From Malacoraja senta (taxonomy: Eukaryota): a DNA stretch of 64,000 bases. A program made the translations under genes and the position numbers. Below, piece by piece: positions 7,401 through 10,400 of this stretch (position 1 is the first letter of the stretch; each line of letters begins with the position of its first letter). Location: the NCBI GenBank assembly GCA_038087875.1, contig CM075993.1, forward strand, positions 2,606,001 through 2,670,000. The letters run 5' to 3'. The notes below the pieces were generated by a model, which was not told the origin of the DNA, made no database searches, and saw only the letters and a list, made by a program, of their open reading frames with translations.

Positions 7401-10400
7401 TCATCGAGAAGGTCCTGTCAATGCAGCCAACACAGGTGTAGCTTTGCACATTTTTTTTTTTTACACAGCCGCAAGAAAACTGGATATTAGCAGGGTTTAA
7501 ACAAAGATTCCACTCAAGCACGCAGTGCCGCTGCACAATATAATCCAGCACTGCAGCAGTTGCTACTGTGGAATATAATTAGCAAAGCGTAATGTCATGG
7601 ATATGTAAAGAAATAGAATCCAGAGACAAAGCGCCACTCACACACATACAAAGCACAAAGGGAGCAGATGCCAACAAGCATATTGGAAGTGACTCTGTAG
7701 ACAATTAAGACAGTCAATAAAGTAACAGGTACAAGTATTGAAGTAATGATCTGGCCAAGATGACCTGGCTACCAAGGAAAATAATTCCATAGATTGTCAA
7801 ATTAAGATGCTTACGCAGAATAATAATAGGGCTATCTGCAGGACAAACTATGCTGCGGACAAACCCACATCCAGGGAGAAACAGCAGCCCTTCTGTCCAT
7901 GTATATAGTATACAAAATATAGGATTTGGGGCAAAGGAACAGCAAGTGGAACTGTCTTCAACGAGGCAAAATTTAGAATAGATAATACATCAGAAATTTT
8001 ACAAGTTGATGAAATAAGTGGGGAGAAAACCAAGACTGATTTGCATGAAATTAATTTTGAATTCTCTGGTACCGACTTTCAGGAGGCCCTGAAAAATAGA
8101 ATGGACTGATCGTAAAGGTTAAATTGAGAACATGGCAGAAGAGATTGATCAGTGGCTGCAAAGCCAAAAAAAGGCAGGAGTCTGATAAACAAAATATTGT
8201 AGCAGTCAGAGGCACGCAATCTGAACAGATTGAAAATGTTTTGTTGGGATTTGCAGATAGCAGTAAATTATGAAGGGCAGCATCAAAACAGCAAAAGCAA
8301 AATAGGCTTCAACAGATAAATTCAGTAAAATGAGCAGCCGTGCATAATATACAGGGAAGAGTTTTTCCTCACGTCATGAAAATAAGTGGGATAGATCAGA
8401 AAATAAATTTGGAATGGCAACATAATGGTGCTAAGAAGATTGCAAAGAACTGGCTAACAAACAGGAATAGGGAACAAGGTCACTGAGTACTACATGGAGT
8501 TCTGAACAATAAGTGTGGAGGCATCAGAGAAAATAATTTAAGGGTGTTAACAGACTCTAGTCCCAATCCTCCCCATTTTCTCATGCTCATCATTTCACAC
8601 CCAATTTTCCTGTAACAATGGCAGAAGGGGCAATTTACAGTAGCCAGGCATTGCATCCCAGAGACAGGCCTTTGGGATGCAAGGGAGACAAAGAGCACCC
8701 GGGAATGTCACAGGGAAGAATGGGCAAACCCCTCCACTAGCCAGCAGAGGGCAGGATACAAATGTGTTGTTAAGCATGGTAATGCAGACCAAAGGAAAGC
8801 TTCTGAATAGAGAGAAAGGCAACATTTAGGCAAGGGTCTGAAGAAACGTCACCCATTCCTTCTCTCCAGAGATGCTGCCTGTCCCGCTGAGTTACTCCAG
8901 CATTTTGGGTGCACCTTCAAAACAGGATTGCTTGTCATTCTGTTATCAATGGGCCAAATGGCTTCTTAATATGTCAAAGAACCAACCTATATATCAATGC
9001 TGGAGAAACTCAGCGGGTGAGGCAGCATCTATGGAGCGAAGGAAATAAGCAACATTTCGGGTCGAACCCCTAAAGGAAATAGGCAACGTTTCGGGTCGAA
9101 ACCCTTCAGGGTTTCGGCCTGAAACGTTGGCTATTTCCTTCGCTCCTTAGATGCTGCTGCACCCGCTGAGTTTCTCCAGCATTTTTGTCTACCTTCGATT
9201 TTCCAGCATCCGCAGTTCCTTCTTAAACATTTAGGCAGTGAAACTTTGAACAAGAGAAACTGGTATTATTCTTTCATGCCAGAATGTTCAATTCCCAGTG
9301 AGTGATTATCCTTCTTACCCATTATTAAAGACTGTTTAAAGAGATTGTTTAAATTGGAAAACGATGTCGAGCTGGAAATCAACAAATTGGCTGGGCCATA
9401 TTCCCGATTAGTTTCAAATCATCAACAGAATGTAGACCATACAGAACGCAATTTATAGTGATACGATCTGACATCAATATTAATGAGATAATATTGCAGA
9501 TAGGCCCGACTTAAATCAGATTGATATTTAAAGTTGGACAGCGCTTTGCACTCTGCTGATGGGACAAAAATAGGCCAGTGAAATGTCAAAAGTTCAGGGA
9601 CAAGCAATGGAATCATTCCTACCTTCCAGACTTAGTCAGCACTATCACAGCTGCAGCACAGCACTTGAAAGAGGCCTCCACAGCACCAATGGCTGCCACA
9701 TCAGATGGATCTCGTGAAAGAGGTGACAAGCGGCGTAACTCTTCAAATAGCTGCCTGTGGTACATGGCAGCTTCAGCCTCTCGAGCAATCTGCAGATGCC
9801 ATACAAAACAGCACCAGGGAAGGGAACAGTCCGGTCAGTTACCACTTCTGCCAAGTTAACCTCAAGTACACCTTGCGTAGTTCAGCCTACCTTCATCTAC
9901 CTTCCGAGCCTAACTGAGCCAAATGTGCCCCAATTGTTGGACCTGATCAACACAGCTTGGGAAACTGATACAACCAATGTTGGCCACATTACTTCTGGAT
10001 GCATGAACGAACCAAAACTGCGTAGCCAACCTACTTGCATCAATTTTTCCCCCATGCCATTTGAAATAGCCTCAAGCTTGAGATGGGTTAGCCAGCCACC
10101 AGGCCATTTAGTTATCCAGAAGCCTGCAAGAAGAAATGGTTAACTTAACCTGCACAGTATCACTCATTTACTACTCTACCTGCCAGATTTGGTCAGGATT
10201 ATAATACCAGCAGCAAGGCATTTAAAAGAGGCCTGCACAGCACCAATGGCAGCAGTCTCCGTTGTGTCTACCGTGGGAGGTGCTAGTTGAGCGATCTCCG
10301 AATACAATTGCCGATGATACATTGCGGCCTCTGCCTCAAGGGCTATCTGTGGGCCACAAAATAAGACAGGAACAGAGAAAGATGCAAGAGAGTGTCAGGT

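Follow-up and report, generated by a model that had tools for sequence, protein, structure and literature searches.

The M1/M2 switch of pyruvate kinase is a textbook case that is usually read from mammals alone. The exon 9/10 pair of PKM is known: the supplement of PMC8373072 assigns it the date 'Vertebrata', it has been described in zebrafish pkma (PMC6177464), and it is counted among the homologous-exon pairs with solved structures (PMC4465641); PKM is not named in the main text of PMC4494069. In M2, residues R399, E396 and E418 form an inter-subunit salt bridge that is said to favour the R state (PMC6420622; PMC4383751). The C424L substitution in M2 is described as giving M1-like activity without FBP and, after Ikeda and Noguchi 1998, as abolishing regulation by FBP (PMC6208296), and as promoting the tetramer without activator (bioRxiv 10.64898/2026.09.22.753476), and M1 carrying E433K is stated to bind FBP (bioRxiv 10.1101/292813, citing Ikeda 2000). 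A literature search by title and start of abstract, with coverage that mostly excludes the older enzymology, returned no work on PKM exon 9 in elasmobranchs or on the kinetics of that isoform. What is already known is the exon 9/10 pair and an elasmobranch isoform modelled by NCBI; what is new is the retained K433 and the neutralised interface bridge of the upstream exon.

Motif and tblastn scans located a complete, minus-strand PKM gene in the 64-kb window, that is, the whole stretch of skate DNA analysed here (Table 1). Joined by coordinates, the exons give a spliced product of 534 aa with either alternative exon. The protein is identical to human PKM at 446/524 positions (85%), compared to 378/525 (72%) for marmot PKLR, which identifies the gene as PKM rather than PKLR, and its elasmobranch relatives are annotated PKM. 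Exon 9 is bordered by a CAG acceptor and a GTAGAG donor and encodes a stop-free 55-aa segment; exon 10 sits 390 nt downstream and is identical to it at 36/55 aa and 110/167 nt. By the exon coordinates in the PMC8373072 supplement, the equivalent human intron is 401 nt. Inclusion of both exons, or omission of both, shifts the reading frame and leads to stops at aa 487 and 403, respectively, and no third copy of the exon was detected in the window by tblastn.

Table 1. Coordinates of PKM features within the 64-kb window.
Feature	Position	Strand	Remarks
Coding exon 2	27727-27908	-	
Coding exon 3	26559-26650	-	
Coding exon 4	20905-21036	-	
Coding exon 5	18209-18395	-	GC donor
Coding exon 6	17081-17351	-	
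Coding exon 7	15648-15798	-	
Exon 8 (constitutive, upstream partner)	13428-13580	-	
Exon 9 (upstream, M1-position, mutually exclusive)	10180-10346	-	167 nt, human residues 381-436; L424, K433, A399/S396/Q418
Intron 9	9790-10179	-	390 nt; separates both alternative exons
Exon 10 (M2-position)	9623-9789	-	167 nt; R399, E396, E418, C424, K433
Exon 11 (constitutive)	5497-5678	-	FBP-site residues S437, W482, R489
Last coding exon (reaching approximately the stop codon)	4363-4469	-	FBP-activating loop 514-522 with S521

Some further features of the locus were noted. The intron after exon 5 is a GC-AG intron, with the donor GCAAGT (GC at 18207-18208, minus strand). Upstream of the coding exons, positions 30345-30416 (minus strand) match residues 1-24 of a Mobula PKM isoform of greater length (79%), and may be an upstream exon used in a form with an extended N-terminus. 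Intron 10 holds, at 8977-9202, two inverted copies of an abundant short repeat with 100-nt arms that are 81% complementary, 26 nt apart, and ~420 nt from exon 10; further copies of this repeat lie at 6077, 6810, 8856, and 15010.

The upstream exon is well conserved among elasmobranchs. From 357 homologous proteins, collected by homologue searches and from clusters, we extracted 143 distinct complete 55-aa segments (incomplete or fused ones were dropped by pattern). Exon-9 forms were present in 8 elasmobranch species, 46-53/55 aa identical to the window exon 9, and NCBI isoform models in all 8 place them between exons 8 and 11. The nearest relatives were Rhinoraja for exon 9 (53/55) and Amblyraja for exon 10 (55/55), which marks the sequence as that of a skate. 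Across the 6 elasmobranch exon-9 isoforms compared, identity was 0.87-0.96 for exon 9 and 0.91-0.97 for the constitutive exons; given this near-constitutive level, neutral decay is excluded. Exon 9 is accordingly real and non-neutral, and the idea of a pseudo-exon was rejected.

Transcript evidence was drawn from 4 of 24 sequencing runs, whose RNA labels were guessed and which carry no tissue label. The exon-10 form was spliced to exon 11 in 4/4 runs (joint 5678>9623) and to exon 8 in 3/4 (joint 9789>13428). For exon 9, one of the four runs (X12) yielded a 223-nt contig that matches 10180-10346 up to both exon borders with a single differing letter, is flanked at either end by 28 extra letters, and is shaped like the spliced exon-10 contig of the same run; we infer that the flanks are exons 8 and 11. 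Exon-9 joints were absent among the 15 joints listed, with 256 further joints beyond these. In runs X2 and X5, the contigs listed across exon 9 are unspliced, reach into the introns, and are uninformative on expression. In run X6, a contig (9761-10346) spans intron 9 and exon 9 and stops exactly at the exon-9 acceptor, followed by 28 further letters, which is possibly an exon 8-9 splice with intron 9 retained.

Residues were numbered by human PKM2 and compared with the human M1 and M2 exons (PMC8373072 supplement). The preliminary description had presented exon 9 as a mosaic of M1 and M2 allosteric determinants, and the residues that it listed were all found: L383, Y395-S396-E397-I398, A399, L401-A402-P403, T408, T409-E410, G415-A416-V417, Q418, S420-F421-K422, L424, and K433. 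Also borne out was its statement that exon 9 is more diverged than exon 10, with a best PDB score of 60.9 versus 91.1 bits and an identity to lamprey of 37/55 versus 43/55. Of the marks of a mammalian-type PKM1, the exon carries a hydrophobic residue at 424 and a non-arginine residue at 399 (L424, A399), and lacks the acidic 433 that blocks FBP (K433). Of those of a PKM2 type, K433 and an intact FBP pocket (16/17 positions as in human M2) are present, and the small or polar C424 and the R399-E396-E418 bridge are absent (L424, A399, S396, Q418). A399 had been called M1-like; human M1 has V399, but A399 does occur in sheep, goat, cetaceans, and marmot.

Exon-9 segments were classed by a hydrophobic residue at 424, and the comparison set comprised 54 distinct non-elasmobranch exon-9 segments, which are not mutually independent. 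This classing is not circular, since in 45/45 bony-vertebrate gene models with both exons in order the upstream copy has L or M424 and the downstream copy neither. Within the set, P403 was found in 20/54 segments, TE at 409-410 in 8/54, GAV in 42/54, SFK in 43/54, and P408 in 46/54; P403, TE, GAV and SFK co-occur in exon 9 of coelacanth, bowfin, Prochilodus, and fugu, and are mostly present in lamprey and PKLR too. A mosaic of M1 and M2 determinants in any special sense is thus not supported: P403, TE, GAV and SFK are ancestral states lost by mammalian M1, and the mosaic results largely from taking mammals as the reference. Nor is T408 an M1 marker as had been proposed, given that human M1 has L408 and most non-elasmobranch exon 9s P408; it varies within elasmobranchs (4/8 exon-9 segments).

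The changes regarded earlier as the exon's own are all present in the window, but several recur elsewhere: S396, I398 and Q418 in the chimaera, Q418 also in several amniotes, and L383 in frogs. Leucine at 383 (codon CTT, 10338-10340, minus strand) is private among the elasmobranchs examined and convergent with frog exon 9, where it was seen in 3 distinct segments; it is absent from the 81 exon-10, PKLR and lamprey segments. The matching PKLR residue is R426, for which R426W and R426Q are reported disease variants (PMC10475990), and site 383 may therefore matter. L383 may instead be a sequencing error: R383 is found in each of the 8 remaining exon 9s of elasmobranchs, and the X12 contig differs from the window at one letter. 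Against an error, frogs carry the same residue.

The one exon-9 feature special to elasmobranchs is K433. Lysine occupies 433 in 8/8 elasmobranch exon 9s and in none of the 54 others, where the residue is E (26), G (24), T (2), D (1), or N (1); E433 was confined to lobe-finned fishes and tetrapods, G433 to ray-finned fishes, and chimaera has T433. As lamprey and exon 10 carry K433, retention is the shortest history (3 changes, versus 4 for regain). Added up from the root of exon 9 through every elasmobranch row, the tree branches amount to ~0.9 changes/site, at which an average site stays unchanged ~4 times in 10; K433 retention under drift is therefore not improbable and needs no selection. 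The remainder of the FBP site is conserved, with S521, which lies in a constitutive exon, as the sole exception among 17 positions, and the amino-acid-pocket, active-site and modification positions checked all match human M2.

The window and 10/10 chondrichthyan PKM proteins checked carry Ser at 521, where 12/12 other vertebrate pyruvate kinases with the loop read have Phe or Tyr (one further vertebrate enzyme gave no loop match). Being encoded in the last coding exon (4363-4469) and shared by both isoforms, S521 may alter closure of the FBP loop or weaken FBP binding.

At the subunit interface, A399, S396 and Q418, which had been given as separate changes, hit all three partners of the single M2 bridge. 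Q418 was found in 13/44 segments without R399 and 0/99 with it; besides chondrichthyans, it turns up independently in a snake, tree shrew, mole-rats, and a rhinoceros. From this pattern we infer that the acids at 396 and 418 are dispensable once R399 is lost. M2 C424L retains K433 and P403 and thus has the same L424 and K433 pair as the window exon 9. Given that the C424L background keeps R399, E396 and E418, their loss in exon 9 could restore the T state.

In the reading that we favour, at about even odds, exon 9 yields an M1-type tetramer that is largely constitutive, and whose FBP pocket is open while its coupling to FBP is weak. Exon 9 would be spliced in place of exon 10. L424, judging from mammalian mutants, would stabilise the C-C' tetramer interface, giving mostly tetramer with high basal activity, and A399, S396 and Q418 would as a set remove the M2 salt bridge and leave an uncharged interface. 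K433, as a retained ancestral residue, would still let FBP dock, and perhaps phosphotyrosine peptides or RNA as well, and FBP would raise activity little unless an inhibitor (e.g., Phe) first drives the T state. The enzyme would then be no chimera but an M1 whose FBP pocket stays open, and the acidic block at 433 a lobe-finned and tetrapod trait. Of the earlier proposal of a mosaic forming a stable tetramer that still binds FBP, the phenotype stands as the most likely one, predicted from the co-occurrence of L424, K433 and an intact pocket; the mosaic in any special sense is not supported. AlphaFold, run on the Rhinoraja exon-9 isoform as a single sequence, gave a model with pLDDT 34.9, which was discarded.

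The main rival, which we place below even chances, is genuine FBP activation with cooperativity: the isoform would be a stable tetramer still switching from T to R and so, as first proposed, an intermediate or third regulatory type. K433 in 8/8 and P403 in 7/8 elasmobranch exon 9s, together with the intact pocket, are in keeping with this; K433 and P403 could keep the coupling, and loss of the R-state-favouring bridge could offset L424. Skeletal-muscle pyruvate kinase of globefish, isoform unspecified, is also cited as FBP-activated (PMC6208296). Fugu exon 9 has L424, and together with the globefish enzyme it counts against weak FBP coupling. A Ser-to-Pro change at the 402/403 site reportedly makes rabbit M1 cooperative, and a 1978 survey is said to have found that FBP stimulates muscle pyruvate kinase of fish and not of birds or mammals; both favour an FBP-activated enzyme. 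Set against it, C424L alone abolishes FBP regulation of M2 despite K433 and P403, and retention of K433 is explicable without selection.

The same drift estimate fits an ordinary M1, constitutive and FBP-blind, with K433 as a neutral left-over. L424 and the non-arginine 399 are as in mammalian M1, and S521 may impair the FBP loop. We consider this unlikely, as E433K is reportedly enough for M1 to bind FBP and the other phosphate-binding residues are all present. A broader evolutionary reading, to which we give the same chances as the FBP-activated rival, would see elasmobranch PKM1 as a surviving early stage of M1, where the L424 lock arose at the jawed-vertebrate root and E433 shut the FBP site only in lobe-finned fishes and tetrapods, leaving a stable tetramer that is still FBP-activated and carries a K433/R436/R455 patch for phosphotyrosine and RNA. 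An FBP-activated stable tetramer, if true, would be a natural third regulatory type, with oligomer control separate from FBP control.

Regarding the origin of the exon, a maximum-likelihood (ML) tree of 48 chosen segments (25 exon-9 rows, 55 columns) placed 25/25 exon-9 rows on one side of a weak branch (60/86), within which they split into chondrichthyans (97/89) and osteichthyans (95/80), following the species tree. This weakly suggests orthology of the window exon with exon 9 (M1) of bony-vertebrate PKM, and the position upstream of exon 10, the equal size of 167 nt and the shared L424 point the same way. In the AU test, a clade of elasmobranch exon 9 and exon 10 was not rejected (p 0.38; 55 columns). 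That surviving clade would suit a true chimera or separate duplication, with elasmobranch exon 9 derived from exon 10 independently, or its 3′ part (K433) regained by gene conversion. Codons 413-424 likewise show 8/10 synonymous codons identical versus 4.0 expected (p 0.01), in a post hoc window for which 5 were tried. Over the whole exon, however, the count is 15/35 versus 13.5 expected (p 0.35), the T432, K433 and G435 codons differ between exons 9 and 10, and the ML tree joins the window exon 9 with that of chimaera (97/89), matching the species tree. Together with the shorter history of K433 retention, this makes an origin from exon 10 very unlikely.

Recent gene conversion between exons 9 and 10 is not supported over the whole exon, where synonymous identity is at chance. 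The excess at codons 413-424 may stem from conversion of a short stretch long ago, or from a splicing element common to both exons. Lamprey showed a single exon type (R399, S424, K433) in 4/4 proteins, at the protein level only; the published table dates the event to Vertebrata. The exon-10-type segment of Callorhinchus is odd (C399, Q400, D396, I408, S424, G427, K433) and forms a long branch in the tree, and R399 is absent from both chimaera isoforms.

The finding refines a known system and adds no new one. The comparison suggests that two M1 features were separated in evolution, hydrophobic 424 being general to the upstream exon and acidic 433 restricted to lobe-finned fishes and tetrapods. 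Mammalian PKM1 shares with the skate exon the same gene, an upstream 167-nt mutually exclusive exon, L424, and a non-arginine 399, but has E433, S403, E396/E418, and GSV..SYK where the skate has K433, P403, S396/Q418, and GAV..SFK. Mammalian PKM2 resembles skate exon 9 in K433 with the FBP pocket, P403, and T409-E410, whereas both PKM2 and its C424L mutant keep R399/E396/E418; the M2 equivalent in the window is exon 10. Exon 9 of ray-finned pkma1 (zebrafish, PMC6177464) and of coelacanth is similar in L424 and GAV..SFK, often with P403 and TE, and in ray-finned fishes 433 is likewise not acidic (G433, N in one). Unlike the skate, teleost exon 9 keeps R399/E396/E418, coelacanth has E433, and neither group has K433 (0/54). 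The exon-9-type segment of Callorhinchus shares S396, I398, Q418, a hydrophobic 424, and a non-arginine 399, but differs in T433, T403, and I424 and is identical to the skate at 36/55 positions. Elasmobranch exon 9 is thus a natural L424 and K433 enzyme without the R399/E396/E418 bridge, suited to asking whether the interface lock alone cancels FBP control.
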